58,221 nucleotides of DNA from a virus (Duplodnaviria; Caudoviricetes), in the IMG/VR virus record IMGVR_UViG_3300048591_001185, positions 1-58,221 of that record. One strand, written 5' to 3'. The position numbers and the translations under genes are program-made. Positions 3,447-45,746 of the stretch are shown here, piece by piece (within the stretch, counting starts at the first letter, position 1; each line of letters begins with the position of its first letter). Below the pieces are notes generated by a model that saw nothing but the letters and a program-made list of their open reading frames with translations, made no database searches and had not been told where the DNA came from.

Positions 3447-3966
3447 AATTATTAAACTAAATATTGGAGCAGGTGGAACAAAGAAAGATGGATTTGTTTC
3501 AGTTGATGCTTTTAATAAAAAGGCAGACATACTTGCACCAGCAAATGATACTGGATTTAGTGATGATTCAATTGATGAAATTTTTAGTTCACATATGATA
3601 GAACATATTGACAGAGCCCAACTGCCTGATGTTTTATCACATTGGTACAACATTTTAAAAAAGGGTGGTAAGGTTCATATATTAGTACCCAATGCTCAAT
3701 TGTATTTGAAAGAATGGTTGGCTGCTGTTGAAAGAAAGGATTGGGAACATTTAGAAGGTTGGGGCACCAGATGGATAATGGGATTTGAAGGCAAAGGAAC
3801 TGGAATGTATCATGTAAATTTATTCCACCCAGAAACATTAAAAAGAGCACTTGAGAAAATAGGATTCAAAGTTGAATCTTGTGGTGCAGTACCAACCAGA
3901 GTCAAATCAATGACTCATTTTGAGTACAGAAACAATGGAGACATAGAATGCATAGCAATAAAATAA
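3439..3966 (+). CDS. Methyltransferase type 11-like protein
   Basis: LNIGAG, DEIFSSHMIEHI, LKKGGKVHILVPN. Confidence 0.8.
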   Translation: MSEIIKLNIGAGGTKKDGFVSVDAFNKKADILAPANDTGFSDDSIDEIFSSHMIEHIDRAQLPDVLSHWYNILKKGGKVHILVPNAQLYLKEWLAAVERKDWEHLEGWGTRWIMGFEGKGTGMYHVNLFHPETLKRALEKIGFKVESCGAVPTRVKSMTHFEYRNNGDIECIAIK

Positions 3967-4931
3967 ATATAATGTATTTGGGTGCTTTTGGAAAACATTG
4001 TTCAGATTCTTACAGGTTGAAAGGAATAAAAGAAAGTGGAATGTACAATTTGGTATGTTGGTTAGATTATAGAGAATTGCACAAACAACATGGTGATAAT
4101 TTTGTTTACAAGATTAATGAAATGATTGGTGATAATGAGCCTGATGTTTTATTGATAAACAAAGGTGAGCTAATAACTGGTGACCATATAAAATATTGGA
4201 AAGAAAATTTTGAAAATTTGGTTGTTGCTTATTGGTATGGTGATATGAGAGATGGAATATCAGAATATGTGCTTGATAAAATTTCAGGAATTGATTTATT
4301 CCTTACCAATTGTGATGAAGATTGGTATGTTGATGAGATAAGTAAATTGGGTATTGATAAGCATAGAATATTTTTCAGTCATACAGCAACTGACTGTGAT
4401 ACATTTAAGCAACAAAATGTAGAAAAGCAATATGATATAATATTTTTTGGTGGCAATTATAAGAATAAATTTGACCACAGTGAAATAAGAACTAATTACA
4501 TACAAAGACTTATTAATTCAGGCAAGTATAGTATAAAAATATTTGGGTTGAATTGGAATACATTAGGTGCTGCTGAAAGACCAGTGTATGGTGATACATT
4601 TTCTAAGCAGGCCAGCAAAGCAAAAATAATACTTGGGTTCAGTTCATATCTTGATAGAAATCATTACACCAGCAATAGAATTTGGAACAGTATGGCTTGT
4701 GGATTTCATTTGACTCATTATTTTAAGGGCATTGAAGATTATTTTGAGAATGGAAAAGATTTAGTTTGGTTTGATACTTATGAAGAGATGGACAAACAAA
4801 TTGATTATTATTTGAAAAATAAAAAAGAAAGAAATGAAATATTTTTAAAGGGCAGGGAAAACATATGTAACAATCATACATATAAAAATAGGGCAATTGA
4901 AATGTATAAAATTTTCAAAAAATTTTTATAG
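3948..4931 (+). CDS. CgeB-like glycosyltransferase
   Basis: YWYGD, YDIIFFGG, IFGLNW, SNRIWNSMACG, HTYKNRA. Confidence 0.8.
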   Translation: MHSNKINIMYLGAFGKHCSDSYRLKGIKESGMYNLVCWLDYRELHKQHGDNFVYKINEMIGDNEPDVLLINKGELITGDHIKYWKENFENLVVAYWYGDMRDGISEYVLDKISGIDLFLTNCDEDWYVDEISKLGIDKHRIFFSHTATDCDTFKQQNVEKQYDIIFFGGNYKNKFDHSEIRTNYIQRLINSGKYSIKIFGLNWNTLGAAERPVYGDTFSKQASKAKIILGFSSYLDRNHYTSNRIWNSMACGFHLTHYFKGIEDYFENGKDLVWFDTYEEMDKQIDYYLKNKKERNEIFLKGRENICNNHTYKNRAIEMYKIFKKFL

Positions 4932-4940
4932 GATAATGAC

Positions 4941-5465
4941 ATGCTGAGACTGAAATATTTATATAAAGATAACTGTTCATGGCAAAATCTTGAATTTCTA
5001 AGGAATACAAGAAGTCACCCAAATATCATTGAAAATGTATTTCATAGCAAAAAAATTACAAGAATAGAACAAGAAGAATGGTATGAAAAAGATTATTCAG
5101 CTGACCCAAATTATATGATATGGATTGTTTATGATGATGATAAACAATCCCCAATAGCTTATATACAATATCACTTGGAAAGCCTGATACACAGAAGATG
5201 TAATGTTGGATATGTTATTTCACCTGAATATTCATGTGTTTCAAATAATTATGATAAAAAAGTAATAAAAGAAATGATTAAAAATGTTAAAGGTTGGAAG
5301 GATGAAATACATAGACTTGAAACTAAAATTTTTACAACAGATAAAATTAGAATTGAGAAATTAACTGATTGTGGGTTTGAAATTGATGGAATTATTAGAG
5401 ATTACATTTTTAAAGATAGTGAATATAGAGATGTTTATTTGCTGTCATATTTATTAGGTTCTTAA
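4941..5465 (+). CDS. GNAT acetyltransferase (RimJ/RimL/PseH-like)
   Basis: ITRIEQEEWY, VGYVISPEY, CGFEIDGIIRD..YRDVYLLS. Confidence 0.7.
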   Translation: MLRLKYLYKDNCSWQNLEFLRNTRSHPNIIENVFHSKKITRIEQEEWYEKDYSADPNYMIWIVYDDDKQSPIAYIQYHLESLIHRRCNVGYVISPEYSCVSNNYDKKVIKEMIKNVKGWKDEIHRLETKIFTTDKIRIEKLTDCGFEIDGIIRDYIFKDSEYRDVYLLSYLLGS

Positions 5466-31371: not shown

Positions 31372-32427
31372 ATGAAAAAGTTAAATTTAAACCAAATTGA
31401 AGATGCATCTGTAATAGAAATAGTAGAAGATATTACACCAAAAGAACTGAACAAACAGTTAGTTGAATTAGGATTATGGAAGCCAGGCTGCCAATTTCTT
31501 TCTAAAGATGATAAACTGAAACTGATGACTTCTTCAAAGTCAACTCAAAATAGGATTTATGTAAAAGTAAAAAATACAATTGAAAGAATTAGAAAAAATG
31601 CTGGTGATAGGGAATATAAATATTCATTTTCTGAAAAGTCTGTCACCAATGGTGTTAATGTAGTGGGAGATGTTGACCAATTGAAAAATTTTATGACACC
31701 TGTTTATGAGGACAAGGTTTATTTTAGCAATGGAACTGATATGGTTGAAGCACCAAAGCACAAAGCAATAGTGACTAAAGATGGCAAGATTGTAAGTGTG
31801 ATGAACCAAGGATATAAACTTATAAGGAATGAAGATGTTGTTATGCCATTGTTGGAAAAATTGGACAAATTGGACAGTAAGTGGTACATTGATGGAAGTC
31901 ATTCATTTTTAACCAATACTAAGATGAGAATGCAGGTGACTTTCCCTGAATTAAGATTTAATGATGGTAAGTCTGATATAGCTATGAGTTTGTATTTGAC
32001 CAATAGTTATGATGGTAGTAGTTCAGTAAATGTTAAGTGGGGAGCAATTAGGTCAATATGTAGTAATGGAATGGTTTTTGGGAATATGTTTAATGATTTT
32101 TATCACAGACATTCTTCTTTCTTTGTAGCAGATAGCTTGCTTGAGCAGCTTGAAGACACTTTCAAACTGATTCCAGCTATTAATGAAAAAGTGAAATTGT
32201 TGGATGCTTCTAAATTTAGGGTAAGTGATTATGTGATGGAAGAAATTTCAGACACAATAGGTAAAAAAGCACTTGCTTATGTTGAGCAAGAAAATGGTGA
32301 AAATAAAGACCAAATAAAAACACAGTGGGATTTGCTTAATGTTCTTACATACTATGTTTCTCATTATGTAAATTATAAGACAAGAGCCCATTATCAGCAA
32401 AGAATAAGTAATATGTTTGAAATGTAA
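31372..32427 (+). CDS. DUF932/DUF945-family protein with an extra N-terminal domain
   Basis: YKLIRNEDV, LTNSYDGSSS..GAIRSICSNGMV, TQWDLLNVLT. Confidence 0.75.
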   Translation: MKKLNLNQIEDASVIEIVEDITPKELNKQLVELGLWKPGCQFLSKDDKLKLMTSSKSTQNRIYVKVKNTIERIRKNAGDREYKYSFSEKSVTNGVNVVGDVDQLKNFMTPVYEDKVYFSNGTDMVEAPKHKAIVTKDGKIVSVMNQGYKLIRNEDVVMPLLEKLDKLDSKWYIDGSHSFLTNTKMRMQVTFPELRFNDGKSDIAMSLYLTNSYDGSSSVNVKWGAIRSICSNGMVFGNMFNDFYHRHSSFFVADSLLEQLEDTFKLIPAINEKVKLLDASKFRVSDYVMEEISDTIGKKALAYVEQENGENKDQIKTQWDLLNVLTYYVSHYVNYKTRAHYQQRISNMFEM

Positions 32428-33531: not shown

Positions 33532-34401
33532 ATGGAAATAGGAATAAGAAAAGTTAACCAAAATTATGTTTTTATTTTTTTGGATGCAAAGAAAAAAGAA
33601 GTAAATGAATTTGCTTCAGAACTAAGAAATATTGATGGATTTTATTATAATGGTTTTTTTATTGATAAAAGAAATGAGTATGAGATAGGTTTTAAAATTG
33701 TAAATGAAGGTTATTTACATATAATGGATGAATTATCAAATAATAAAATAATAATAAACAAAAAAGAAATGGAGTGTATCATGGCAACAAAACAGGCACC
33801 ATACAAGTTATGGACATTGAAAGCATTAAAAAATGAACTCAAGCAAAGAGAAATTGATTTTACTGAACTTGAAGATTCAAATGACAAAGCAGCATTGGTT
33901 GCATTATTGCAAGCTGATGATAATGAACCAAATAAAGTAATACCAACTGATGATGAAATTGAAGATTTAGAATCTGAAGATGAATTGGATGATGAAGAAT
34001 CTGAAGATGAAGAACTTGAAGATGAATTGGATGATGAAGAATCTGATGATTTAGAATCTGATGATTTAGAATCTGATGATGAAGCAAAAGCACCAGCTAA
34101 AAAAGCACCAGCTAAAAAAGCACCACCAAAGAAAGATGAGCCTGCAAAACTTAAAAAGAAAGCAGCAAGTAAGAAGGATAAAGGAACTTCATCAATTGAA
34201 TTGAATACCATGCTTAGAGAAAAAAATCTATGGAGACCAGGCTGTCAGTTTTTAAGTAAGGTTGAGAAGCAGGAATTGTTGGATGTTAACAAAAATGAAA
34301 GACAAAAAATATATGACATGCTTGATAAGAAATTTACCAAACTAAAAAAGAAAATATCAGAAACGAATAAAGAAACAAATAAAGCTAAAAAAGAAGCATA
34401 A
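33532..34401 (+). CDS. Modular acidic/basic protein (SAP/HeH-like domain, D/E tract, PAKKA repeats); possible internal start at 33781
   Basis: WTLKALKNELKQREI..KAALVALL; EDELDDEES repeats; KAPAKKAPAKKAP; GGAG SD before ATG 33781. Confidence 0.6.
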   Translation: MEIGIRKVNQNYVFIFLDAKKKEVNEFASELRNIDGFYYNGFFIDKRNEYEIGFKIVNEGYLHIMDELSNNKIIINKKEMECIMATKQAPYKLWTLKALKNELKQREIDFTELEDSNDKAALVALLQADDNEPNKVIPTDDEIEDLESEDELDDEESEDEELEDELDDEESDDLESDDLESDDEAKAPAKKAPAKKAPPKKDEPAKLKKKAASKKDKGTSSIELNTMLREKNLWRPGCQFLSKVEKQELLDVNKNERQKIYDMLDKKFTKLKKKISETNKETNKAKKEA

Positions 34402-34410
34402 TATGATATT

Positions 34411-34441
34411 TGCCCTTGGTGAAAATCAAGGGCATTTTTTT
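34411..34441 (+). terminator. Rho-independent terminator
   Basis: TGCCCTTGGT-gaaa-ATCAAGGGCA followed by a T tract. Confidence 0.85.
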
Positions 34442-34588: not shown

Positions 34589-35581
34589 ATGAAAATAGCT
34601 ATTTTTGGTGGTGGTATATCAGGAATGACTGCTGCCCTTGTACTAAAAAATAAATTAAAAAATGCTGATGTATCCATTTATACCAAAGATTTGGGTGGCA
34701 ATTTTGGAGCTGGTGGATTAAAATATTTGAAGTATTCAGAGTATTCAGAATATTTTATGGATAAGTGTTTGCCTGAAATAAGCTATGGAATTGTTAATCC
34801 AATTGGGGCAATTTATCATGAAAATGAAATTTATAATTTTCCATTATATCTTTATAATATTTTTGGTGGAAGTGATATACAAAAAAAATATTGGGTAAAA
34901 ACAGGCAGGGATATTAATAAATTTGATAGTAGATGTATGAATGATGCTTTTAATTTTAGAACAGAGCTGAGTATAGATTTATTAGAGAAAAGTTTGAATT
35001 ATTTTATTGATTCAATGGTTAGTAAGATTCAAAAAACAACAAAAATAATTAATGTAAATTTTAATTTGGAATTATTTGATGATGTAGTAAATGAAAATGA
35101 TATTGTTATTTATACATTGCCACTTTCATTGTTGTCTGATAGAATAGGAAAAAAATTGAAGGCAGAGTTTATTGCATCAAATCTTAATATTCATAAATAT
35201 GGATTGGATGAATGTGTACTAAATAAAATTTGGTTTGATTATTTATATGTTCCTGATAATGATTATAAATTCCACAGAATATCAATTGATGAAAGCACCA
35301 TGTCATTGCATGCTGAAGTGAATAGTGATGATAATATTGATAAAGATGTTGAAAAGTTTTTGAATGAAAATTTTGGTTCAAGTTATATTGGTAAAATTGG
35401 CAATTCTAATATTAAAGGTCAAATAACAACTGATATTGATATTGAAGAAGTTGAGAAAGTTTTGCCTGATAATGTTGTGCTGTTGGGCAGGTTTGCTGAA
35501 TGGAACAAAAGAATTGTTTGGAGTGATGTGGTTGAAAAAATAGTTTTAAGTGATAAATTATCAAAATTGTATATTAAGTAA
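34589..35581 (+). CDS. FAD-dependent oxidoreductase, UDP-galactopyranose mutase/HemY-like
   Basis: N-terminal IAIFGGGISGMTAA, IVIYTLPL, C-terminal LLGRFAEW. Confidence 0.7.
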   Translation: MKIAIFGGGISGMTAALVLKNKLKNADVSIYTKDLGGNFGAGGLKYLKYSEYSEYFMDKCLPEISYGIVNPIGAIYHENEIYNFPLYLYNIFGGSDIQKKYWVKTGRDINKFDSRCMNDAFNFRTELSIDLLEKSLNYFIDSMVSKIQKTTKIINVNFNLELFDDVVNENDIVIYTLPLSLLSDRIGKKLKAEFIASNLNIHKYGLDECVLNKIWFDYLYVPDNDYKFHRISIDESTMSLHAEVNSDDNIDKDVEKFLNENFGSSYIGKIGNSNIKGQITTDIDIEEVEKVLPDNVVLLGRFAEWNKRIVWSDVVEKIVLSDKLSKLYIK

Positions 35582-35596
35582 AAATTGGTATTTATT

Positions 35597-35956
35597 ATGA
35601 AGAAAAATTATACATTGTGTTTTTATGAATATCCTGGTGCATTAATGGAAATTAAGCAGTGGGAAAATTTGAAATTTGATTCTATAATTCACAAAGAAAT
35701 TTGGGATGATAAAACAAGACTTTATGAAATAAAATTAGACAAAGATAAGTGTGATGGATTTGAAGTGGAAATTTTATTTTGTATAGCAATGGATAATATT
35801 GGTTTTGTTAGTAATGCATTTTCATCAGTGATGAATACTGTTTTCAATCTTAAATTAGTATATTACAAAACAATAATATTTGGCAAGGTTGATATTAAAT
35901 GGATAAATAAAATACAAAAAATAGTTACAGGGTTGGAAAAAGAAAATGGAAAATAA
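35597..35956 (+). CDS. Hypothetical protein
   Basis: ORF within the operon, preceded by TTGTATATTA. Confidence 0.5.
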   Translation: MKKNYTLCFYEYPGALMEIKQWENLKFDSIIHKEIWDDKTRLYEIKLDKDKCDGFEVEILFCIAMDNIGFVSNAFSSVMNTVFNLKLVYYKTIIFGKVDIKWINKIQKIVTGLEKENGK

Positions 35957-36902
35957 AGATTTGCTTGAAAGGATATTTGAAATTCAAAGTGGTCATAATA
36001 ACATGTGGCAAGACAAAGTAAAGTTCAATACTGATAATAATTACAGATTAATGGTGATGAAAGATTTTGTACTTGGTATAAGTAAGCAGAATGTATCCTT
36101 GCTTGAATCTTTCAATTGGTCAGACCACATACTTGAAAGAATTGAAGATTCACACAATAGTAAAGTTCAGCTAATTGATATAACCAAATATGTGATTGGA
36201 CTTTTCATTTTGTTAGGTGGAAAAGAAAAGGATTTTTTTGAAATGTTTGAAAATAAGTCTAAAGAACTTGACAACAGGTGGAGCCAATTATTTTCAAATA
36301 TGACTGAGAATACATCAGTTGTTATATTTGATATTGATGGGGTTATTGCTGATTATAGTACTCATTATCAAAATTTTTTAGAAGATGTTTGTGGGTTGAA
36401 AAAAGTCAATGTTAAAAGAAAGTCATATTCATTCTATGAAACATATGGTATAACAAGACAAGAAGAAGAACAATTCAACAATAATTTTGTGCAAGTTGGT
36501 GGTTTCAAGGACATTCCTGTTTTTGATGGGGTGGTTGATACAATAAAAAAATTGAAATCATTTGGCTATAAAATCATATTAGTCACAGCCAGACCAAATT
36601 GGATATTCAAAAGAATAGCAGCAGATACCCAACATTGGCTTAAGAAAAATGATGTACCATATGATTTGTTGTTTTGGAATAAAGACAAGTCAGATGTTAT
36701 TATCAATAATATTTTCCCAGCAAATATTAAATGTATGGTTGAAGATAGAGATAAACATGCCCTTGAAGTATCTCATATTGGGGTTGATGTATTGTTGCTT
36801 GACAAAAGTTATAACAAAGGGATAAGTGACACTGACAGAATAAAAAGAATATATGGATATTCAGAAATTTTAGATTTTATAAAAAATAAGGAAAAAAAAT
36901 AA
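35946..36902 (+). CDS. Fusion of an all-alpha dUTPase/NTP-PPase-like domain and a HAD 5'-nucleotidase-like domain
   Basis: HAD motifs FDIDGVIAD, LVTARP, K, VEDR; helical N-terminus with LLESFNWSDH..LIDI. Confidence 0.7.
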   Translation: MENKDLLERIFEIQSGHNNMWQDKVKFNTDNNYRLMVMKDFVLGISKQNVSLLESFNWSDHILERIEDSHNSKVQLIDITKYVIGLFILLGGKEKDFFEMFENKSKELDNRWSQLFSNMTENTSVVIFDIDGVIADYSTHYQNFLEDVCGLKKVNVKRKSYSFYETYGITRQEEEQFNNNFVQVGGFKDIPVFDGVVDTIKKLKSFGYKIILVTARPNWIFKRIAADTQHWLKKNDVPYDLLFWNKDKSDVIINNIFPANIKCMVEDRDKHALEVSHIGVDVLLLDKSYNKGISDTDRIKRIYGYSEILDFIKNKEKK

Positions 36903-37652
36903 ATGAATAAAGTTGTTATAATAACTGGTGCTTCAAATGGTATTGGATTATCATTAGCAGAAACACTTGCTGAAAATGGTTATATAGTATTCAACCTTGA
37001 CATTGTATATCCAAATAAAATAGGTGGTGGTATATTCATTAAATGTGACATTAGGGATTATAAACAGATTGAATCAGCAAAAAGGGAAATGGAAAAAATT
37101 GCTTGTGATATTAATCCTGATTATAAATTAATTTCACTTGTTAACAATGCTGGTGTTAATTATTTAGATTGGTTTGATAAAATATCTCAACTTGATTTTA
37201 ATAGAGTAATAGACACAAATGTCAAGGGAACATTTTTTACAACTCAAGTTTTTTTACCAATGCTTGCTAAACATAAATCATCAGTTATTAATGTTGTTAG
37301 CAATGCTGCTGATAAGCCAATGACTTGTTCAAGTGTTTATAATGCAAGTAAGGGTGCTGTTAAAATATTGACAAGAGAAATGGCCAGAGAATTAACACCA
37401 AAGTTTGGTATAACAGTATTTGGCATTTCTCCAAATAAAATATTGGATACAATGATGAGTGAGTATGTGGATGAAGTTGTACCTGATATTAGGGGATGGA
37501 CTAAAGAACATGCTCAAGAATATGAAATAAATGGCATACCTTGTAGAGAAAATACACCACTGAAAGTTTTTACAGACCATTTAGCATATTTAGTAATGCT
37601 TGAAGATGATAATAAATATATGTCTGGGAATATAATTGAATATGGAGTTTAG
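36903..37652 (+). CDS. Short-chain dehydrogenase/reductase
   Basis: TGASNGIG, NNAG, YNASK. Confidence 0.9.
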   Translation: MNKVVIITGASNGIGLSLAETLAENGYIVFNLDIVYPNKIGGGIFIKCDIRDYKQIESAKREMEKIACDINPDYKLISLVNNAGVNYLDWFDKISQLDFNRVIDTNVKGTFFTTQVFLPMLAKHKSSVINVVSNAADKPMTCSSVYNASKGAVKILTREMARELTPKFGITVFGISPNKILDTMMSEYVDEVVPDIRGWTKEHAQEYEINGIPCRENTPLKVFTDHLAYLVMLEDDNKYMSGNIIEYGV

Positions 37653-37654
37653 AA

Positions 37655-38044
37655 ATGAATATTTTTGAAAGAGATAGGAAAAATGTTATATCAAATGCTG
37701 ATGCAAGATTGACTGAAGCTGAAAAAACTGGTATGAAAACACAACATGAATTTGAATTGATATTAAATGAAGCAGCAAATTTGAGAATGGAAAAAGTTTT
37801 ACAATATGGTGAAGAAAGGTATGATGAAAAAGATATTGATGTACAGCTATGGATGTTATATTGTGATATTTGGCGCAAGTTTAGTAGATTAAGGAAATTG
37901 ATAAAAAATATTATAAAAAATGAAGATTTGAAAAGTGTTGAAAAATTAAGAGATGACTGTTTGGATTTGCTTAATTATGGTGCCATGGGGGCTCAAATAA
38001 TAGACAGACTTGATTTGATAAATAAGTTTAATAAGAAACAATGA
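37655..38044 (+). CDS. Nucleotide modification associated domain 1 (DUF1599-like) protein
   Basis: K..QYG..KFSRL..DDCLDLLNYGAM pattern. Confidence 0.6.
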   Translation: MNIFERDRKNVISNADARLTEAEKTGMKTQHEFELILNEAANLRMEKVLQYGEERYDEKDIDVQLWMLYCDIWRKFSRLRKLIKNIIKNEDLKSVEKLRDDCLDLLNYGAMGAQIIDRLDLINKFNKKQ

Positions 38045-38742
38045 TAAAAATTTATAAAATTGAAAATATAGAAAGTGGAAAAATATATGTTGGTCAAACA
38101 TCAAAAAAAGGTAGAATGTGGAAAAATTATTATGGTAGTGGTGTTCATATAAAAAAGGCAATTAAAAAATATGGTAGGAATATTTTCAAAAAGAAAGTTT
38201 TGTGTTATTGTGGAACACAAAAATTAGTTGATGAAAAGGAAATATTTTACATAAAAAAGTATGATAGTCTGAACAATGGATATAATGAATGTCCTGGTGG
38301 AAGTGGTGTTGGAAGTGGTGAAGGAACACCATGGTATGGAAAGCATCATTCAGATGAAACAAAAAAGAAAATTGGCAAATTTAATAAGGGAAAAAAATTT
38401 TCAGATGAAATTAAGAAAAAGATGTCTGAATCAGCAAGGAAAGTTTGGGAAAATATGGAAGCTGAAAAAAGACAAAAGATGGAAGCAAGATTAAAAAATA
38501 CTGGTTACAGAAATATGGGTGATGAAGAAAAGAATGAATTGAAAAAGAAGCATAGCAAAAGGATGAAAGAATATTGGAAAAATCTTACACCAGAACAAAA
38601 GAAAAATAAATTGAAAAATATGGTTTCAAAAATTACACCAGAACAAAGAACTGAATTTGCTAAAAATGCAAATAGTCACAAAAAAGTCGATCAACATCAA
38701 AAAAAGGAACAAAACAATGGAAAAGAAAAAGACACCATTTAA
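38041..38742 (+). CDS. Free-standing GIY-YIG homing endonuclease with NUMOD3 repeats
   Basis: IYKIEN..IYVGQT, YYGSG, GYN..GG, GKHHSDETKKKI. Confidence 0.85.
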   Translation: MIKIYKIENIESGKIYVGQTSKKGRMWKNYYGSGVHIKKAIKKYGRNIFKKKVLCYCGTQKLVDEKEIFYIKKYDSLNNGYNECPGGSGVGSGEGTPWYGKHHSDETKKKIGKFNKGKKFSDEIKKKMSESARKVWENMEAEKRQKMEARLKNTGYRNMGDEEKNELKKKHSKRMKEYWKNLTPEQKKNKLKNMVSKITPEQRTEFAKNANSHKKVDQHQKKEQNNGKEKDTI

Positions 38743-39544
38743 CACTCTTGATAAAATGAAAACAGATGAAAAGATAGCAAATGCAATATCACCATTGAAT
38801 CTTGGACAGATTAATGAAGGTGTAAAAAATATTAAGGTCAAGATATTAGATTGGCCAGATGAAAAAAGAATGAAGGTGCTGCTTAGTAAAATGGTACAAG
38901 CAACCATTGGTGGAAATATTGAAGAAGAAATTAATGAAGAATTAGGTGAAGAACTTTTCAAAGGTGGATTACAGACTGGATTGGAAGCATTTAATGTTAG
39001 TTTTGAAATAAGTGGAGTAAGTAGGGCATTCACTCACCAATTTGTTAGAACAAGAAAAGCAGCATATCATCAACAATCAAGCAGATATACTTATATGGGT
39101 GATATGTTTAATGTAAGGATGCCCCAAACTATTGCTGACAACCCTGAAGCTAAAGCAATCTTTGAAAATTTTGTAAAGGTTTCAAGAGAAACATATGCAA
39201 AATTATGTGAGTTAGGTACACCTTTTCAAGATGCAAGGTTCACCTGCCCTGTTGGATTGGAAACATATATAATTGGTGAATTTCCATTAAAGGTTTTTAT
39301 GGACACATATCAATATCGTGGATGCATAATGTTCCAGTGGGAAATTACTCATGTATTTCTAGAGATGAGAAAACAACTAATTGAAAAATTACCATTCCTT
39401 GAACCATATATAAAAATCAGTTGTGAAAAGAATCACAAGTGTACATTTCAGGGCTGGGAAAATGTTGAAGAATATTGTGACTTGCCATGGGCTGGTGATA
39501 GAGTTTTCAAAAGTGAACATTTCACAAGTAATAATAAAAAATGA
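38717..39544 (+). CDS. thyX: FAD-dependent thymidylate synthase (ThyX) homolog with a variant signature
   Basis: FEISGVSRAFTHQFVRTR..QQSSRY, QDARF, QWEI; AAGGA SD before ATG 38717. Confidence 0.8.
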   Translation: MEKKKTPFNTLDKMKTDEKIANAISPLNLGQINEGVKNIKVKILDWPDEKRMKVLLSKMVQATIGGNIEEEINEELGEELFKGGLQTGLEAFNVSFEISGVSRAFTHQFVRTRKAAYHQQSSRYTYMGDMFNVRMPQTIADNPEAKAIFENFVKVSRETYAKLCELGTPFQDARFTCPVGLETYIIGEFPLKVFMDTYQYRGCIMFQWEITHVFLEMRKQLIEKLPFLEPYIKISCEKNHKCTFQGWENVEEYCDLPWAGDRVFKSEHFTSNNKK

Positions 39545-40206
39545 ATAAAACAATAAAAAAATGTCTGTGTGGCTGTGGGTCAACTGTTAATAATAAATGG
39601 AAAGTTGGTCATTGGATTAAGATGAACAACCCAACTAATTCATTACATGTTAGAAAATTAATATCTGATAGAATGAAGGCAGACAATCCATATTTTGATA
39701 ATTCAGAATTGAAGGAAAAGAAATCAAAAGAAATTAAGGAATGGTGGGCAAATAATCCAAAAGCTAAAATCAGCAAAGACAATTTGATAAAAGGAAATAT
39801 TAAAAGAAATAAAACTAAAAAACATAGGGAAATAGTATCAGACAATTTAAAAAGGAAATGGAAAACTAAAGAATATCAAGATATGATGCAAAAAAAATTA
39901 CACATCAAACCAAATATCAGTGAATTAAAATTATTAACAATATTAAGCAAATATGGATATAAATATTCAGGGGATTTCACTTTTTTTATAGATGGTAAAA
40001 ATCCAGATTTCATTCATTTGGAAGATAAAAGCATTGTTGAGCTATTTGGTGAATGGGTTCACCCAATTACTGATGAAATGGAAAGAACAAAATTTTTTAA
40101 TGATAGGGGATGGAAAGTGCTGATAATTTGGTACAATGAATTGAGAGATATGGATGCTGTTATTGATAAAATAAAAAAATATACATCAAATAATGAAAAG
40201 AAATAA
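39541..40206 (+). CDS. Free-standing PD-(D/E)xK (DUF559/Vsr-like) homing endonuclease
   Basis: CLCGCG N-terminus; NPDF..VELFGEWVH..GWKVLIIWYNEL. Confidence 0.7.
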   Translation: MNKTIKKCLCGCGSTVNNKWKVGHWIKMNNPTNSLHVRKLISDRMKADNPYFDNSELKEKKSKEIKEWWANNPKAKISKDNLIKGNIKRNKTKKHREIVSDNLKRKWKTKEYQDMMQKKLHIKPNISELKLLTILSKYGYKYSGDFTFFIDGKNPDFIHLEDKSIVELFGEWVHPITDEMERTKFFNDRGWKVLIIWYNELRDMDAVIDKIKKYTSNNEKK

Positions 40207-40208
40207 TA

Positions 40209-43200
40209 ATGTCAAAAATAGAATCAGTTGATTTTATACACCTTCACTGTCATTCAGAATATTCAGCACTTGATGCACTGCCTAAAGTTGAAGAATATGT
40301 AATAAAAGCTGCAGAGCTGGGCATGAAAGGATTAGCACTTAGTGAGCATGGAAACATGCGTAGTGTTGTTCAATTATTCATAAAATCAAAAGGCAAATTC
40401 ACTTTTAATGGTGAAAAATATGACCTGGCACCCATCAAACCAATTTCTGGAATTGAATTTTACATGTCTCCAATAAATCATCTTATCAAAGGAATTGATG
40501 AAGGTGAAAAGGCAGCCTTGAAAAATAAATGTTCAAATACAGCAGAGTATAAAGAAAAATTAAAAGAACTTGAATCCCAAAAGCAGGTAAGAAAAAGATA
40601 TCATTTACTTGCTTTTGCTAAAAATAATATTGGTTATAAAAATTTATTAATGCTGAATTATTTGTCTTGGAAAGATGGTTTTTATTATAGACCCAGAATT
40701 GATTTAGAATTATTGAAACAATATTCTGAAGGTTTGGCTGTAACAACAGCATGTATAGGTGGATTTGCACCAAGTTTATGGATTGATAAGAAACAAGATG
40801 AATCCTATATTTGGCTGAAAGAAATGAAAAAACTTTTTAAGGATGATTTATATGTTGAAATTCAGCCACACAACATTGAAGAACAAAGAATTGCTAATAT
40901 AGGAATGATACAACTTGCTGATGAATTAAAAATAAAGATTGTTGCCACCAATGATTGTCATTACTTGAATAAGGATGATTACAAGGCTCACAATGTTTTA
41001 TTAGCAATTCAATCTCATAAGCCATTGCAATCTGCTGATGCATGGAGATTTGATGACAATGCATTTTATATGAAAGACAAATGTGAAATGTTGGAATCAT
41101 TTTCAATAAATCACCCAACACTTAATAAACAGTTAGTTGTCAATGCCCTTGAAAATACAATGGAGATATATGAGAAATGTAATGTTGAATTATCAATTGA
41201 TAAAAAGCAAGGTATATTGCCTAAAGTTACAATACCAAAAGAATATAAATCACCAAAAAGTTATTTGATAAAATTATGTAAGGATGGTTGGGTTTGGAGA
41301 AATATTAAAGTAAGGGCAGAAAATTATTCTAAAAAAAATAATATAACTGAAATTAAAAGTTATAAAATGTATAAAGACAGGCTAAAACATGAACTGGATA
41401 GAATTGTAAGGTTGAGATTTGAAAAATATTTTTTAATAATACATGAATTGATATGGTGGGCAAGAAACAATGATATAATGGTCGGGCCAGGTCGTGGAAG
41501 TAGTTCAGGTAGCTTAGTGTGTTATCTGATAGGTATTACATCAGTTGACCCAATAGAATATGACTTGCTGTTTGATAGATTTTTAAATGAAAGTAGGATT
41601 GATTATCCAGATGTTGATATGGACTTTGAAGATACCAGAAGGAAAGAAATTTTCAAACATTTGTTTGATAAATATGGTTATGATTATGTTTCTTTGGTTG
41701 GAACTTTTGGAAAATTAAAGGGTAAACAAGCCCTGCAAGATGTTAGTAGAGTGCATAGCATAGATTATAGAGAAGTATCAGCAGTTACAAAACATATCAT
41801 AATAAGGTCAGGTGGTGATGCAAGAGCCAACCAATCAGTTGAAGATAGTTTCAAAGAGTTTGATGTGTGTAAGCAGTTTGATAAAAAATATCCAATGGTA
41901 TTGCCTTTTGTTAAAAAGTTGGAAGGGAAAATCAGGCAAGTTGGTATTCATGCCTGTGGGATACAATTATCACCAACTGTGATGGAAAGGTTCATACCAG
42001 TTGAATTCAGAGAAATAAAAGGTGAAGATGAAATAAAACTTTGGGGCACTAATAGATTAAAAGTGTCTGGAATTGACTGGCGTGATAGTCAGGATTTAGG
42101 ATTGGTTAAGATAGATGTGCTTGGATTGAAAACATTATCTGTTATAAAAGAAGCATTGAATGCTATTAATAAAAGGTATGATAAAAAGATTGATTTGGAA
42201 AAAATTAGTTTGGAAGACAAAAATGTATTAGGTGGTTTTACAAAAGGTGATTTTGTAGGAATATTCCAATTTGATAGTATTGGTATGACAAAGACTTGTG
42301 AGAAATTAAAGTTCACTGAATTTGAAGATATAATAACAATGAATGCTTTGTATAGACCTGGTGGCATGAGATGTATAAGTGGTGATACTAAGATAATGCA
42401 AAATTGGTGGGATGATAAAAAAAGAAATAATACCAAAAGATTTGTTTATTTAACAATTAAAGAAATGTATGAAAAATGGATTGATAATAAAATAAATCCT
42501 ATCAGAACTATTTTGTCATATGATAAAAACACTGGTAAGGTGGTCAGGAATGAAATAATAAAAATTGAAAAATCTGGTATTAAAAAAGTTTATAGTTTGG
42601 ATGTTAGATTATTTCAAAAGAAAAGTAAGTGTAATAACAATCCAAATAGAACCAGGAACTTAAAAACATCATCAGAGCATATAATAATGACTTTGGATGG
42701 TTGGAAAAAAATGGGTGATATTGAGATAGGAGATTATGCTCTTGTTAAATATAGTAACACAGTTGGTAAGTCAAAAAGAAAATATGGTATGCATCATATA
42801 TCAGAACATAATAAAAGAATGCACACCTTACAAGATAGAGCAAAATTTTTCTATAAAGATAAATGTTTTATTTGTGGATATGATGTTTTTACTGATGTTT
42901 GTCACATTGATAAAAATAGGAATAATAATAGCATTGATAATTATTTAATTCTTTGCCCAAATCATCATAGAGAATTTGATGGGGGTGTTTTAAAATTAAG
43001 TGATAATAAAATCACAAAACTGAAATCAGAAAATTGGCTTGGGAATAGCTATGATGATGATTTTGTTTTCTCTAAAGTAATGAGAAAGAATTATGAGGGT
43101 GAAGTAGAAACATATGATATTGAATGTAAATCACCATTAAATAATTATATTGCTGGTGAAGTTGTTGTTCATAATTCAGGTCTGACACAACATTTTGTGA

Positions 43201-45746
43201 ATAGAAAAATAGGAAAAGAAAAAGTTGAAAAGTTGCACCCAATTTATGATGAGATAACAAAAAGCACTTTGGGAATATTAGTATATCAAGAACAACTGAT
43301 AAAATGTTTTGTTAATCTTGCTGGCTATCACCCAGGCACAGCAGATGAAATTAGAAAAGCTGTGGCAAAAAGTTTTGGTGTTGAGTTTATTAATAAACAA
43401 AAGGAAATATTTGTTGAAGGTGCTGTTAAGAATGGTATGGATGTTAAGAAAGCTAATGAGCTATTTGAAAATATTTCATTCTTTGGGTGTCTTACTGGTG
43501 ATACATTGGTACATAGGATTAGTGCCAACCAATATCAGAAAGAACAAATATCATTGAGTGATTTATATGAGTATCAAAATAAACCTTATAATAATTTGCT
43601 GTATAAGAAATTAAAATTGAAATGTTTGATTGAAGATGAAGCTGTGGTAAAATATAATGACATGATTAAGGTTGTGAAAACTGGTGTTAAGAAAGTTTAT
43701 TTGGTTGAGACTGAATCTGGTAAGTTTTCAAAATCAACAATGGAACATGGTTATAAATTAAAAGATGGATGGAAGAAATTAAAATCAATAAATATAGGTG
43801 ATGAAATATGTGTCACTGATTTTGAAAAGCCAAAAAATAATTTAGGCATTGGCAAGGGCGGCAGGTCAAAGGGCAAGACATATAAAAATCATGGATTGCA
43901 AAAAGGTGAAAAAAATATAAATTATGTGAATGGTGTAACTGGTAAGGATGTTGAGTCAAGAAAAGCAATGGTTGAAGAACATGGTGAAAAGTGTATGGAA
44001 TGTGGTTCAACAAAATTTATAGAACAGCATCATAAAGATTTTAATCACAGTAATAACAAAAAAAATAATTTAATACTGCTTTGTAGGAAATGTCATAGAA
44101 ATAAACATAGTCATCAACTTAAAAGATATACAAAAGGATATTCAGTAAGGTATGAAAAGGTTATTACTATAAAATATTTGGGTGAAGAAGAATGTTATGA
44201 TGTGATGATGGAAAATCCAAATAATAATTTTGTTATAAATGATGGAATAATTGTTCATAATAGCTATGCATTTAACAAAGCTCATGCTGCAGCTTATTCA
44301 GTGATAGCTTATTGGGGGATGTATTTGAAAGTTTATTATCCAACAGAATTTTATTATGCTTTGATGAATAAAGAAAATGATATGGCTGAAATTCTAAGGT
44401 ATGTCATTGTTTCAAGAAAAGCTGGAGTTGATGTACAGATTGCTGATATCAATTTTGCTGACATTAATTTCAAAATAAAAGATGATAAAACAATTATTAG
44501 TGGGTTGGCAGATATCAAAGGATGTGGTATAAAAGCAAGTAATGAAATAGTTACCAACCAACCATACTCATCATTAAGAAATATGGTTGATAAAGTAAAT
44601 AGAAGGCAAGTACATAAAGGTGTAATTACATCACTTGTAAAAGCTGGTGCATTAAGGTCAATGTATCCAAATATTGGGGCATTACTTGAAGAAGTGAATT
44701 ATGATAATAGGAAAGAAAGAAACACAGGGGAACTTATCATCAAACCTGTTTGGGAATGGATGCTGATGTTAAGTGAAGAGGATGGAAATTTGTTATATAA
44801 GAATTGGGAAAACAAACTGGGAAATATGGATGAAGAACAACAGGTGAAGATAATGTCACAAGTTTGTCCAATACCACCTTATAAACATAAAATTGAATAT
44901 TATGATGGAACAATTAGAAAAATAATGAAAGATAGAAAAAATCTTGAGTTATATATACAACCAGATGAAAATTATGATAATGAATTAGAATTTAGTGAAT
45001 CAGGTTTGCATAGAAATAAAGGAATATTTATTGGTACATTGGTTGATATCAAATATAATAATGTTGGTGATTTTCATAAAGAAGAACCAGACAGTCAGGA
45101 AAAGAAAAGAATTGGTTGGGGTAAAAGATATTCAAATTTGAATATAGAGAATGTTTTGGGTATTAAAAGAGTGAATGTGGATATTTATACTTTTCCAACT
45201 TATAGACAAGTGATTGACAAAGGTTTACAAACACCAGTGTTAATCATAGGTTCTGTGTTAAAATGGAGTGAAGTGATATATGCTGATATTATTATTGATT
45301 TAGACCATTTTAGAGAAATTATGGAAATGAAATTGCCTATTAAACAAAGATATAATGAATTATTACCACAAGAAAAATATTTGTTGAAGCACCCAACAAC
45401 TTTCCATAATAAAGAAATGAAATCAAACTTAAAAAATATAAAATTTGACATCACTAAAGGTACAAGGCAAGTGATAGTTCTTGTTACAAGAGTAAAAAAT
45501 CATTGGACTAAAAAAGGTAAAAAAATGATGTTTATTGAGTTGGAAGATGAAACATCATATTTGTCAGTGATTGCTTGGCCAGAATGTGTTGTAAGGAATA
45601 GTAATAAAATGAAAACAGGTATGGTTGTTAAATTGTATATCAAAAAAAATAAAGATGGATATTTTATAGATGAACAAAGAAAGATTGAAATGATTAAAAA
45701 ATATTGGGAACAGGTTGGTACATCTGCTGGGGATATTTATAATTAA
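40209..45746 (+). CDS. dnaE: DNA polymerase III alpha subunit (family C) with two inteins
   Basis: PHP HLHCHSEYS, ATNDCHY, GPGRGS, PDVDMDF, KIDVLGL, YQEQ, YAFNKAH; C-terminal OB fold. Confidence 0.95.
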   Translation: MSKIESVDFIHLHCHSEYSALDALPKVEEYVIKAAELGMKGLALSEHGNMRSVVQLFIKSKGKFTFNGEKYDLAPIKPISGIEFYMSPINHLIKGIDEGEKAALKNKCSNTAEYKEKLKELESQKQVRKRYHLLAFAKNNIGYKNLLMLNYLSWKDGFYYRPRIDLELLKQYSEGLAVTTACIGGFAPSLWIDKKQDESYIWLKEMKKLFKDDLYVEIQPHNIEEQRIANIGMIQLADELKIKIVATNDCHYLNKDDYKAHNVLLAIQSHKPLQSADAWRFDDNAFYMKDKCEMLESFSINHPTLNKQLVVNALENTMEIYEKCNVELSIDKKQGILPKVTIPKEYKSPKSYLIKLCKDGWVWRNIKVRAENYSKKNNITEIKSYKMYKDRLKHELDRIVRLRFEKYFLIIHELIWWARNNDIMVGPGRGSSSGSLVCYLIGITSVDPIEYDLLFDRFLNESRIDYPDVDMDFEDTRRKEIFKHLFDKYGYDYVSLVGTFGKLKGKQALQDVSRVHSIDYREVSAVTKHIIIRSGGDARANQSVEDSFKEFDVCKQFDKKYPMVLPFVKKLEGKIRQVGIHACGIQLSPTVMERFIPVEFREIKGEDEIKLWGTNRLKVSGIDWRDSQDLGLVKIDVLGLKTLSVIKEALNAINKRYDKKIDLEKISLEDKNVLGGFTKGDFVGIFQFDSIGMTKTCEKLKFTEFEDIITMNALYRPGGMRCISGDTKIMQNWWDDKKRNNTKRFVYLTIKEMYEKWIDNKINPIRTILSYDKNTGKVVRNEIIKIEKSGIKKVYSLDVRLFQKKSKCNNNPNRTRNLKTSSEHIIMTLDGWKKMGDIEIGDYALVKYSNTVGKSKRKYGMHHISEHNKRMHTLQDRAKFFYKDKCFICGYDVFTDVCHIDKNRNNNSIDNYLILCPNHHREFDGGVLKLSDNKITKLKSENWLGNSYDDDFVFSKVMRKNYEGEVETYDIECKSPLNNYIAGEVVVHNSGLTQHFVNRKIGKEKVEKLHPIYDEITKSTLGILVYQEQLIKCFVNLAGYHPGTADEIRKAVAKSFGVEFINKQKEIFVEGAVKNGMDVKKANELFENISFFGCLTGDTLVHRISANQYQKEQISLSDLYEYQNKPYNNLLYKKLKLKCLIEDEAVVKYNDMIKVVKTGVKKVYLVETESGKFSKSTMEHGYKLKDGWKKLKSINIGDEICVTDFEKPKNNLGIGKGGRSKGKTYKNHGLQKGEKNINYVNGVTGKDVESRKAMVEEHGEKCMECGSTKFIEQHHKDFNHSNNKKNNLILLCRKCHRNKHSHQLKRYTKGYSVRYEKVITIKYLGEEECYDVMMENPNNNFVINDGIIVHNSYAFNKAHAAAYSVIAYWGMYLKVYYPTEFYYALMNKENDMAEILRYVIVSRKAGVDVQIADINFADINFKIKDDKTIISGLADIKGCGIKASNEIVTNQPYSSLRNMVDKVNRRQVHKGVITSLVKAGALRSMYPNIGALLEEVNYDNRKERNTGELIIKPVWEWMLMLSEEDGNLLYKNWENKLGNMDEEQQVKIMSQVCPIPPYKHKIEYYDGTIRKIMKDRKNLELYIQPDENYDNELEFSESGLHRNKGIFIGTLVDIKYNNVGDFHKEEPDSQEKKRIGWGKRYSNLNIENVLGIKRVNVDIYTFPTYRQVIDKGLQTPVLIIGSVLKWSEVIYADIIIDLDHFREIMEMKLPIKQRYNELLPQEKYLLKHPTTFHNKEMKSNLKNIKFDITKGTRQVIVLVTRVKNHWTKKGKKMMFIELEDETSYLSVIAWPECVVRNSNKMKTGMVVKLYIKKNKDGYFIDEQRKIEMIKKYWEQVGTSAGDIYN
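42372..43175 (+). mobile_element. Intein 1 in DnaE (268 aa) with HNH endonuclease
   Basis: LYRPGGMR|CISGDT ... TYDI..NNYIAGEVVVHN|S; CFICG..HIDKNRNNNSIDNYLILCPNHH. Confidence 0.92.
43488..44261 (+). mobile_element. Intein 2 in DnaE (258 aa) with HNH endonuclease
   Basis: FFG|CLTGDT ... CYDV..NNFVINDGIIVHN|SYAFNK; CMECG..HHKDFNHSNN..NLILLCRKCH. Confidence 0.92.

Follow-up and report, generated by a model that had tools for sequence, protein, structure and literature searches.

The subject of this analysis is a cluster of genes at positions 34589 to 39544 of IMGVR_UViG_3300048591_001185, a virus record from IMG/VR whose whole length of 58,221 bases is referred to here as the window. The cluster is proposed to be the version carried by this phage of a widespread, uncharacterised nucleotide-modification module that is expressed together with the replicative DNA polymerase DnaE. 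As defined by sequence comparison, the core of the module consists of a flavoprotein, a HAD phosphatase, a ThyX-like enzyme with four additional cysteines (Cys4-ThyX) and DnaE, and a short-chain dehydrogenase/reductase (SDR) appears as a frequent fifth member. The module would be the best candidate for making the sugar-decorated thymines that have been reported from some of its carriers. The best-supported explanation, to which we give about even odds, is that the cluster produces a sugar-derived thymidine hypermodification with enzymes that differ from those in known routes via 5-hydroxymethyldeoxyuridine (5-hmdU).

The window phage is a tailed phage, and its record is classed as linear with a completeness of about 60% according to CheckV. 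An earlier inspection of the letters alone (the sequence-only reading) had described six co-oriented, tightly packed genes in this cluster, followed by DnaE. All six were found, in a single unit running on into the DnaE gene, together with two genes that had been overlooked, a GIY-YIG open reading frame (ORF) at the junction of ORF E and ThyX and a DUF559-type ORF at the junction of ThyX and DnaE. DnaE thus belongs to the same unit, but it does not stand directly behind ThyX, since ORF H intervenes. The features are as follows.

34411 to 34434, plus strand: terminator-like hairpin just 5' of the cluster, a 10-bp stem followed by a T run
34589 to 35581, plus strand: ORF A, 330 amino acids (aa), FAD flavoprotein with the fold of UDP-galactopyranose mutase (UGM), of an uncharacterised, mostly phage family
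35597 to 35956, plus strand: ORF B, 119 aa, open from a TTG at 35585, no family
35946 to 36902, plus strand: ORF C, 318 aa, all-alpha NTP-pyrophosphatase-like N-terminal domain (about residues 1 to 115) fused to an NT5C-type HAD domain (about 120 to 300)
36903 to 37652, plus strand: ORF D, 249 aa, classical SDR of a phage 'FabG-like' subfamily
37655 to 38044, plus strand: ORF E, 129 aa, small, helical and lineage-specific, possibly a distant Nmad1/DUF1599 relative
38041 to 38742, plus strand: ORF F, 233 aa, free-standing GIY-YIG/NUMOD3 homing endonuclease wedged between E and ThyX
38657 to 39544, plus strand: ORF G, ThyX-like, 295 aa as maximal ORF, with the likely start at ATG 38717 or 38756
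39541 to 40206, plus strand: ORF H, 221 aa, C-terminal DUF559 domain (Vsr-like endonuclease fold), between ThyX and DnaE
40209 to 45746, plus strand: DnaE-type replicative polymerase, 1845 aa, with two intein-like inserts; the conserved downstream neighbour of the module

Consecutive genes are spaced by 15 nt (A to B), -11 nt (B to C), 0 nt (C to D), 2 nt (D to E), -4 nt (E to F), -4 nt (G to H) and 2 nt (H to DnaE), a range of -11 to 15 nt if one disregards that the ThyX ORF, at its maximal length, overlaps the GIY-YIG endonuclease ORF. Because the plus strand carries almost every long ORF of the window, the common orientation of the cluster is little informative. The feature that exceeds chance is the synteny conserved elsewhere.

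For metagenomic relatives, IMG/VR was searched with patterns from ORF A alignments, including one of 23 sequences. Fifteen loci were obtained, 12 of them non-redundant (L008 duplicates L013, L010 duplicates L018, and L015 duplicates L016). In all 12, a fusion gene of the ORF C family lies directly 3' of the ORF A-type gene, and a ThyX of the same clade plus DnaE follow within about 5 kb downstream in nine; the remaining three, L006, L007 and L014, reach the contig edge. Further genes accompany this arrangement. A class-III aminotransferase, nearest to acetylornithine, succinylornithine, putrescine and ornithine aminotransferases, is present in 9 of the 12 loci, and a P-loop, thymidylate-kinase-like gene in seven. 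In L005, L008 to L012, L015, L017 and L019, an aminotransferase and a Tmk-like kinase are placed between the phosphatase fusion and DnaE (e.g. L009:11885-13078 and L009:13072-13656). Their presence suggests a product bearing an amino group and requiring a dedicated kinase. The divergent locus L006 contains a trimeric dUTPase/dCTP-deaminase-like gene, an ORF B homolog, a Tmk-like gene and an RmlD-like extended SDR, with ribonucleotide reductase adjoining; the features L006:11115-11576 and L006:12311-13375 belong to this flavoprotein-phosphatase neighbourhood. An SDR of the window type is absent from all 12 loci. About 2 kb 5' of the flavoprotein, two paralogs, about 290 and 360 aa long, were observed in the same nine loci (L005, L008 to L012, L015, L017 and L019) and a single copy in L014; one of them has a weak Sigma70_r2 match.

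Among cultured phages, a tblastn search with the window ThyX matched 401 phage records, with Mycobacterium phage Onyinye on top (48% identity) and Streptomyces phages at 34-37%. In Onyinye and Rooney the gene order is 'oxidoreductase', phosphatase, an unknown gene, DnaE and ThyX. Mycobacterium phage Hawkeye shows oxidoreductase gp70, nucleotidase gp71, gp72, FabG-like gp73, DnaE and ThyX, and Gordonia phage Gibbin oxidoreductase gp71, HAD gp72, methyltransferase gp75, SDR gp77, DnaE, a MazG-like gene and ThyX. The actinophage 'oxidoreductases' match the hidden Markov model (HMM) of the ORF A family in collinear pieces with E-values of 1.7e-6 to 4.3e-9, and a gene annotated as oxidoreductase or FAD-binding adjoins 32 of the 40 listed actinophage matches to the window HAD domain. 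An unknown family 3' of the phosphatase was noticed in these four actinophages (Hawkeye gp72, L020:9627-10136; Gibbin gp74, L021:9877-10374; Onyinye gp81, L001:2318-2941; Rooney gp53, L002:817-1830), without a link to any window ORF.

A related order was detected in phages of Gram-negative bacteria. In E. coli phage WFC and Xanthomonas phage XcP1, a 'hypothetical' gene of about 320-330 aa is followed by a small ORF (WFC only), ThyX, a 'polynucleotide kinase/phosphorylase', a FabG-like SDR, a small ORF, DnaQ and DnaE. The hypothetical gene matches the ORF A HMM (E 4e-14 for WFC, 2e-15 for XcP1), and the annotated kinase is a phosphatase of the HAD_PNKP type with an extra C-terminal domain. WFC gp065 and XcP1 gp46, located behind the SDR, form another conserved pair. 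When the WFC flavoprotein was used as query, 362 phage records were matched, 292 of them from Pseudomonas, and ThyX gave an equal Pseudomonas count. The Pbunaviruses Ab28, F8 and 14-1 share the order flavoprotein, small ORFs, ThyX, HAD_PNKP, DnaQ and DnaE, with no SDR. The HMM of the ORF A family detects F8 gp065 and 14-1 gp66 (E 3.6e-12), the Ab28 flavoprotein was identified by tblastn, and the ThyX proteins of F8 and 14-1 fall into the Cys4 clade of the window ThyX. An orthologous SDR lies inside the module in Hawkeye, Gibbin, WFC and XcP1. Co-conservation of the genes, which the sequence-only reading had expected of relatives, was therefore found for the core in the 12 IMG/VR loci, actinophages, Wifcevirus, Carpasinavirus and Pbunavirus, and for the SDR in several lineages. 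Around the constant core the tailoring genes vary, namely the aminotransferase, the P-loop kinase-like gene, the RmlD-like gene of L006 and the methyltransferase of Gibbin; varying tailoring genes are, according to the accessible text of PMC8989533, also typical of known hypermodification clusters.

The Pbunaviruses are of particular relevance, since two of them have been analysed chemically. EcoRI, HindIII, XbaI, DraI and BsaI digest F8 DNA, according to the accessible text of a 2025 preprint on END nucleases (PMC12191111), which also reports that five enzymes with TG in their sites leave it uncut. Nucleoside digests of F8 and 14-1 yielded new peaks of 362 and 390 U, thymidine derivatives replacing about one quarter of T, and the adducts are described there as a tetrose sugar-alcohol and a cyclic aldopentose (PMC12191111). 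In the same text no biosynthetic genes are proposed for the modification of F8 and 14-1, and Pbunavirus is noted as lacking known ones (PMC12191111). The two masses equal 5-hmdU plus a tetritol or a pentose minus water, and equally deoxyuridine (dU) bearing C5H11O4 or C6H11O5. Because the mass arithmetic is equal for both, O-linked and C-linked adducts are not told apart. A published link between the Pbunavirus module genes and the modification was not found in the literature searched. With the window, F8 and 14-1 share the flavoprotein, the Cys4-ThyX, the HAD phosphatase (gp065, gp059 and gp057 in F8) and DnaE. They differ in their HAD protein, which belongs to the PNKP type and has its additional domain at the C-terminus, whereas the window protein is NT5C with the additional domain at the N-terminus, and in that, besides the SDR, ORF B and a separate ORF E are missing. 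The extra domain of HAD_PNKP proteins is conserved and comprises about 110 residues of no known family in Pbunavirus, Carpasinavirus and Wifcevirus (L026:5772-6836, which is F8 gp057, L027:5940-6956, L024:11285-12301, L023:5904-6971 and L022:7059-7934). Between F8 and 14-1, for which different adducts were reported, the HAD_PNKP protein is the most divergent with 80.8% identity versus 94-97% for flavoprotein and ThyX.

The ThyX-like protein, ORF G, is clearly recognised by the Pfam family Thy1 (1.5e-29, 103.6 bits against a threshold of 24.8) and by phrog_35637 (4e-62). With the NCBIfam equivalog TIGR02170 it scores 75.7 bits, which is under the cut-off of 87.9. For comparison of residues, the ThyX of Thermotoga maritima (TM0449) was used; its PDB chains carry a 12-residue tag, and native numbers are presumably the chain numbers minus 12. 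In the alignment, ORF G keeps the residues Q75, R78, R80, S88, R90, R147 and R174, which bind FAD and dUMP; the Thy1 domain and these residues are common to the two proteins. At the ThyX motif RHRxxSxxxxSxR it reads RTRKAAYHQQSSR, H79 being replaced by Thr and S83 by Ala. Together with His53 to Leu and Glu86 to Gln, four changes relative to the T. maritima enzyme were noted. His53 is presumably the folate-stacking residue, and the roles given to the other residues follow the ThyX literature. No member of the clade alignments has a His in the His53 column, and position 79 is Thr in the window and the isolates, with His retained in the IMG/VR group. In addition, four cysteines, C223, C256, C262 and C274 in the numbering of the 295-aa ORF, are conserved in all 12 aligned sequences (the window, Onyinye, Rooney, Hawkeye, Gibbin, WFC, XcP1, Ab28 and four IMG/VR loci). 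C223 lies two residues past the equivalent of R174, and the other three are part of a C-terminal extension that the T. maritima protein does not share. The four-Cys variant constitutes a large phage clade, with the cysteines likely forming a metal site. The designation 'variant ThyX' given by the sequence-only reading is borne out by the score below the equivalog cut-off, the loss of His53 and the four added invariant cysteines. ThyA (PF00303) had no match in the window record, which is about 60% complete, and none in the five isolates WFC, XcP1, Ab28, Hawkeye and Gibbin. Because of this absence, the ThyX-like protein is the only enzyme of the thymidylate-synthase type in the five isolates.

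The flavoprotein encoded by ORF A was difficult to classify by sequence. It contains a Rossmann motif GGGISG at residues 7 to 12, with G7, G9 and G12 nearly invariant in an alignment of 90 sequences, and the further motifs IYTLP and GRFAEWNK. Pfam returned a weak NAD_binding_8 match (E 0.0063) and no GLF match at E<=0.1, a search against PDB sequences gave nothing useful (best E 0.59), and tblastn yielded no phage match at 1e-3 and plasmid matches at chance level (E>=3). The relatives in isolates were reached solely through the family HMM and the WFC homolog. Close homologs are few, four proteins including ORF A itself from 2033 candidates. A profile search of 1.84 billion representatives detected 207 family members with E<=1e-3, 107 with <=1e-10 and 36 with <=1e-30, mostly 300-350 aa in length. 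From 152 listed representatives, 90 mostly full-length sequences (from P0001-P0120) were aligned, fragments and weaker matches being excluded. The AlphaFold model based on this alignment reached a pLDDT of 93.7 and a pTM of 0.91 and superseded an earlier one from four sequences (pLDDT 63.1). With this model, the top ten Foldseek ranks were all UDP-galactopyranose mutases (best E 1.3e-12). Structural alignment by VIA-align gave a Z-score of 26.0 with the UGM of T. cruzi (4dsg_A, 322 of 330 residues, root-mean-square deviation 3.1), 23-25 with that of A. fumigatus and 21.2 with that of E. coli (1i8t); protoporphyrinogen oxidases and L-amino-acid oxidases followed with Z-scores of about 21 and about 18. 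The three-domain flavoprotein fold is therefore shared, and the motifs GxGxxG, IYTxP and GR(L/F)AE(Y/W), read from the sequences, are common to ORF A and E. coli Glf. In a profile comparison with hhalign, merely 39 N-terminal columns covering the Rossmann motif could be aligned to E. coli Glf (probability 75.6%). The motif FHRIS of ORF A, whose R230 is nearly invariant in the family, resembles by eye the surroundings of R170 and R278 in Glf (RIPVR and YTRII), presumably the arginines binding UDP and diphosphate, but pairwise alignment did not pair them. ORF A differs from the matched UGM chains in being about 40-180 residues shorter and in having genes for nucleotide enzymes as genomic partners, not genes of glycan synthesis. 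The assignment 'UGM/HemY-like' of the sequence-only reading consequently holds for the fold but not for membership in the UGM family by sequence. As modelled, the UGM fold would fit sugar-nucleotide chemistry.

The phosphatase half of ORF C is intact by sequence. Residues 124-301 match NT5C (1.2e-8, 35.5 bits versus a Pfam cut-off of 24.8), phrog_420 and phrog_415 are each matched with about 2e-19, and an alignment of 13 family members shows little or no variation in HAD motifs I to IV, DIDGVIAD with D129 and D131, T214, K248 and E266-D267. The C-terminal domain thus resembles the 5'(3')-deoxyribonucleotidases of the NT5C family. For the N-terminal domain of about 115 residues, neither a Pfam match nor anything useful among PDB sequences was obtained. 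Its relation to MazG and dimeric dUTPases emerges from the relatives, most of which read EEAxE and EExxD, corresponding to the EExxE and ExxD motifs, and from the L006 homolog, which matches dUTPase_2 (3.4e-5, 24.6 bits versus 22.9). The window protein has KQNVS and KVQLID in these places, and its closest relative, in L007, reads QQNTF at the first acidic motif. Because the EExxE motif is lost, the 'dUTPase-like' half is probably inactive in the window phage. From the fusion of a dUTPase-like and a HAD domain proposed by the sequence-only reading, the HAD part can be retained as it stands, while the first part applies to the family and not to the degenerate window domain. Two domains joined in this way, and constantly partnered by a UGM-fold flavoprotein, are not features of the known NT5C and MazG families. 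The preceding ORF B, already listed as unknown in the sequence-only reading, has no Pfam, PHROG or Atlas lead, and the model provided by Atlas itself has a pLDDT of 0.36. Its sole relative among the fetched loci, which is also the sole link by jackhmmer, is L006:11548-11907 in a similar cluster.

ORF D was readily confirmed as an SDR by adh_short (3.8e-37, 128.1 bits versus 26.6 in Pfam) and by the three SDR motifs, TGASNGIG at residue 8, NNAG at 81 and YNASK at 146. It is similar to Hawkeye gp73 (E 3e-22) and Gibbin gp77 (E 5e-29), with which it shares the C-terminal motif MSxYVDxxVPxxRGWT beyond the generic SDR core, and its identity with SDRs from Wifcevirus, Carpasinavirus and phages of Pantoea and Serratia is about 38%. 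The situation is different for ORF E, which the sequence-only reading had called Nmad1-like. PF07659 is DUF1599, the 'Nucleotide modification associated domain 1', and a weak lead to it exists: in the neighbouring Atlas cluster 59% of the members carry PF07659 (feature score 0.94; TM 0.56 in the structural row), and five of nine close homologs match it weakly (best E 0.0089). ORF E itself has a match to phrog_1485 (6e-6), no Pfam match at E<=0.1, none to PF07659 at E<=1, and nothing useful among PDB sequences. Its profile found no homolog among the 2806 ORFs of the related loci, and by this comparison ORF E would be lineage-specific and not a conserved member of the module. The Nmad1 argument is therefore weak. 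A correspondence of ORF E to the C-terminal domain of the HAD protein from Pbunavirus, Wifcevirus and Carpasinavirus, suggested by three collinear motifs seen by eye, was not supported, as jackhmmer gave no link and hhalign a probability of 1.6-2.9%.

Combining these assignments, a pathway can be envisaged. The Cys4 ThyX-like enzyme would bind dUMP and FAD and install or activate a one-carbon unit at C5, the product being 5-hydroxymethyl-dUMP or an exocyclic-methylene intermediate, in place of or besides dTMP. The UGM-fold flavoprotein would handle the sugar or sugar-nucleotide partner, via a flavin-sugar adduct or by oxidation, the HAD phosphatase would strip phosphate from a sugar-phosphate or nucleotide intermediate, and the SDR would yield the polyol by reducing a carbonyl. 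Other lineages may have replaced this last, tailoring step by class-III aminotransferase and P-loop kinase, by the RmlD-like reductase or by the methyltransferase. ORFs B and E would be lineage-specific accessories and F and H selfish endonucleases. Shielding of the phage DNA from restriction would be the biological purpose.

Compared with known systems, the closest parallels are the thymidine pathways via 5-hmdU of phages ViI, M6, PaMx11, PhiW-14 and SP10. As far as the accessible text of PMC8989533 goes, these are also phage clusters beside genes of nucleotide metabolism, in which a thymidylate-synthase-type enzyme provides the C5 carbon, variable tailoring includes a flavoprotein and pyridoxal-phosphate enzymes, and restriction is evaded. 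The window differs in having no match to a ThyA-type dUMP hydroxymethylase, the one-carbon enzyme being ThyX, and in a flavoprotein with UGM fold instead of the MnmC-like fold of PaMx11 gp47. A search for aGPT-Pplase3 (PF18746) in six frames of the window had no match, and the control also matched nowhere. Nmad5, SNAD1 and SNAD2, which have no bearing on these pathways, were likewise without matches. General Pfam scans of 38 window ORFs showed no aGPT-Pplase or 5-HMUDK-like protein; about 13 smaller ORFs were not included, and no dedicated search was made for aGPT-Pplase1/2 and 5-HMUDK. The arabinosyl-5-hydroxycytosine pathway of RB69 and DLP3 likewise combines an unusual thymidylate-synthase homolog with sugar-phosphate enzymes including a HAD phosphatase to obtain a sugar-bearing pyrimidine, but it uses a ThyA-family dCMP hydroxylase and dedicated glycosyltransferases, isomerase, kinase and nucleotidyltransferase (accessible text of PMC13326640), all of which the window module lacks. 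Thymidine hypermodification itself is known; a pathway from the components present here has not been described in the literature searched, as far as its accessible text extends, nor was a description of the module as a pathway found there, most subscription journals lying outside the coverage.

Several observations weigh against a role in thymidine hypermodification. The connection between the genes and the modification of the Pbunaviruses is guilt by synteny. These phages have no SDR although the F8 adduct is described as a sugar alcohol, and the reported TG context on about one quarter of T calls for a step acting on DNA, yet no protein of the module has a recognisable DNA-binding or transferase domain. 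In the window there is no aminotransferase, no match to ThyA or aGPT-Pplase3, and no EExxE in the NTP-pyrophosphatase-like domain, and the record is about 60% complete. ORF A has no Pfam GLF match, and its hhalign likeness to E. coli UGM is limited to the N-terminal 39 columns. We know of no report on modified DNA in cluster D mycobacteriophages or in these Gordonia and Streptomyces phages, for which no specific search was made. Since every dUMP-binding residue is kept, ORF G could also be an ordinary dTMP synthase. The sequence-only reading had spoken of a possibly sugar-bearing pyrimidine as the product, and this has gained circumstantial support from F8 and 14-1, which carry the core and for which sugar-bearing thymidines are reported, but the conserved dUMP site leaves the canonical product as an alternative.

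This alternative, ordinary supply of the nucleotide pool, is the main rival and is considered rather unlikely. Here the ThyX-like enzyme would be a true dTMP synthase and the DNA canonical. The flavoprotein could serve this enzyme, for example as a reductase driven by NAD(P)H or by donating electrons to a Cys4 metal site, the HAD protein a 5'(3')-deoxyribonucleotidase balancing dUMP and dTMP, and the SDR a reductase of pterin/folate type or another housekeeping reductase. Besides the intact dUMP-binding residues, the location of the genes in a replication module with helicase, primase, RecA and DnaE and the membership of the HAD domain in the NT5C deoxyribonucleotidase family are in line with it. 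In structure, ORF A comes closest to eukaryotic UGMs, with the NAD(P)H complexes 5vwt and 5vwu among the matches, and pteridine reductase is one of many model matches of the SDR. The cutting of F8 DNA by EcoRI, HindIII, XbaI, DraI and BsaI, as given in the accessible text of the END-nuclease preprint, points in the same direction. However, ThyX is not known to require a UGM-fold flavoprotein, a phosphatase and an SDR for making dTMP, and a nucleotidase adjoining a thymidylate synthase would counteract it. Pool supply also has no place for the omega-type aminotransferase, extra kinase, RmlD-like reductase and methyltransferase of the relatives, nor does it account for a ThyX clade without His53 and with four extra invariant cysteines. 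Relatives bearing the core have, moreover, modified thymidine, for which no other candidate genes are named in the accessible text of the preprint.

Two further possibilities place the chemistry elsewhere. The sequence-only reading had considered that the SDR and the flavoprotein supply nucleoside diphosphate (NDP) sugars to the glycosyltransferases at 5 to 5465. In that case the flavoprotein, as a pyranose-furanose mutase, would together with SDR and phosphatase feed the glycosyltransferase, methyltransferase and acetyltransferase genes there, so that virion proteins or host glycans are glycosylated and not DNA. The UGM fold of ORF A would suit this role, and the region contains two GT2, two Glyco_trans_1_2 and two S-adenosylmethionine-dependent methyltransferase genes and one GNAT gene. 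A bona fide UGM does serve DNA glycosylation in Rhizobium phage RL38J1, but the Z-score of 50.3 tabulated for that protein (accessible text of PMC13326640) is far above the 26 of ORF A, which has no Pfam GLF match. A distance of 29 kb containing structural and replication genes separates the two clusters, the flavoprotein gene always adjoins those for HAD, ThyX and DnaE, and neither GT2 nor Glyco_trans_1_2 has a match in any of the five complete module-bearing isolates (WFC, XcP1, Ab28, Hawkeye and Gibbin), so that this explanation is not supported and is very improbable. The other possibility is that the module alters the sugar of a nucleoside and not the base, either to make an analogue or to destroy a nucleotide that is unwanted, for instance a canonical dNTP or a host-made chain terminator. 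The phosphatase, aided by the pyrophosphatase domain where this is intact, would release the nucleoside, the flavoprotein would oxidise a sugar hydroxyl to a carbonyl, and SDR or aminotransferase would reduce or aminate it. An oxidase followed by an aminotransferase or reductase is the logic of nucleoside-antibiotic pathways. The fusion protein of most relatives, an EExxE/ExxD pyrophosphatase-like domain followed by a 5'-nucleotidase-like HAD, and the omega (aldehyde/amine) class of the aminotransferase agree with such a scheme. It is nevertheless very improbable, since the window has a degenerate pyrophosphatase domain, the corresponding proteins of actinophages and of phages of Gram-negative bacteria do not have it fused to them, and the invariably linked ThyX would have no role. 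As to counter-defence, no defence-related family turned up, none having been specifically searched.

Within thymidine hypermodification as the preferred explanation, a more far-reaching mechanism is conceivable. The UGM-fold flavoprotein and the Cys4-ThyX might extend carbon transfer via a flavin-N5-iminium from a methylene to a whole sugar, and hypermodified DNA would then arise by a new enzymatic route; we rate this as improbable. An open-chain sugar on the flavin, as in the mechanism of UGM, would be linked either to C5 of (d)UMP or to the exocyclic methylene made by ThyX, giving a C- or O-linked polyhydroxyalkyl-uracil nucleotide, which the HAD protein would dephosphorylate and the SDR reduce. 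In other lineages the aminotransferase would aminate and the dedicated kinase rephosphorylate, and the co-transcribed DnaE would incorporate the product. Such a route would be common to Pbunavirus, Wifcevirus, many actinophages and the window phage. The F8 mass allows flavin-sugar transfer and does not single it out, because 362 corresponds to dU plus 1-deoxypentitol-1-yl and equally to 5-hmdU plus tetritol minus water. Should flavin-sugar transfer hold, the chemistry would be categorically new.

The surroundings of the cluster are those of a replication region. The window has a G+C content of about 29%, and its plus strand holds nearly all long ORFs. From left to right it contains the glycosyltransferase/methyltransferase/GNAT cluster at 5 to 5465, the tape-measure and large structural genes, SNF2 helicase, DnaB and primase, then the cluster, DnaE, RecA, a Mre11/Rad50-like pair and RuvC. 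The glycosyltransferase cluster lies beside tail genes and may serve modification of the virion or of host glycans. At the DNA level, the module cluster had no match among 50,697 phage records. The hairpin at 34411 to 34434 is the sole terminator-like site between 34200 and 46800, with none inside the cluster or DnaE, and likely marks the start of a new transcription unit. Because no further terminator-like hairpin precedes 46800, ORF A through DnaE are plausibly one transcript. Promoter-like sites were not more frequent than by chance (102 found versus 84 +/- 10.8 expected). Directly 5' of the cluster, a protein rich in Asp and Glu with Lys/Ala/Pro repeats is encoded (33532 to 34401). It has a stretch LW(K/R)PGCQFLSK in common with the DUF932 protein two genes earlier (31372 to 32427), and both products match one single ORF in L007. 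An 'Asp-rich protein' is also present in Hawkeye, three genes 5' of the oxidoreductase.

The genes between and behind those of the module bear signs of mobile elements, and ORFs F and H are outside the pathway. ORF F matches GIY-YIG (24.1 bits versus 22.6) plus NUMOD3, phrog_314 (7e-36) and TIGR01453 (1e-10). ORF H, with its DUF559 match (1.6e-5, 25.2 bits versus 20.6), is by sequence probably a second mobile endonuclease; a homolog stands behind the C-type gene in L007. The window DnaE is 36-44% identical to DnaE of the IMG/VR loci. By tblastn, the DnaE of Rooney and Onyinye cover residues 9-727, 989-1093 and 1347-1406, and the two inserts at about 728-988 and 1094-1346 each start with Cys, end with HN|S and contain an HNH motif. 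ORFs F and H and the two DnaE inteins amount to four mobile insertions within 8 kb.

If the module acts in thymidine hypermodification, genes would be assigned to the hypermodified thymidine of Pbunavirus phages, which are widely used in therapy, and the restriction resistance of Wifcevirus without any known protection mechanism would be accounted for. A route to base hypermodification would start at ThyX, not at a ThyA homolog, and would involve a UGM-fold flavoprotein. Hundreds of sequenced phages encode members of the flavoprotein family under the label 'hypothetical protein', and the family would then mark genomes in which modified DNA is to be predicted. This would matter for phage therapy, where sensitivity to restriction and to END nucleases counts, for work that sequences or clones phage DNA, and in the search for new enzymes. 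Even with canonical dTMP as the product, the fixed partnership of Cys4-ThyX, UGM-fold flavoprotein and phosphatase would represent unexplained nucleotide metabolism in these phages.

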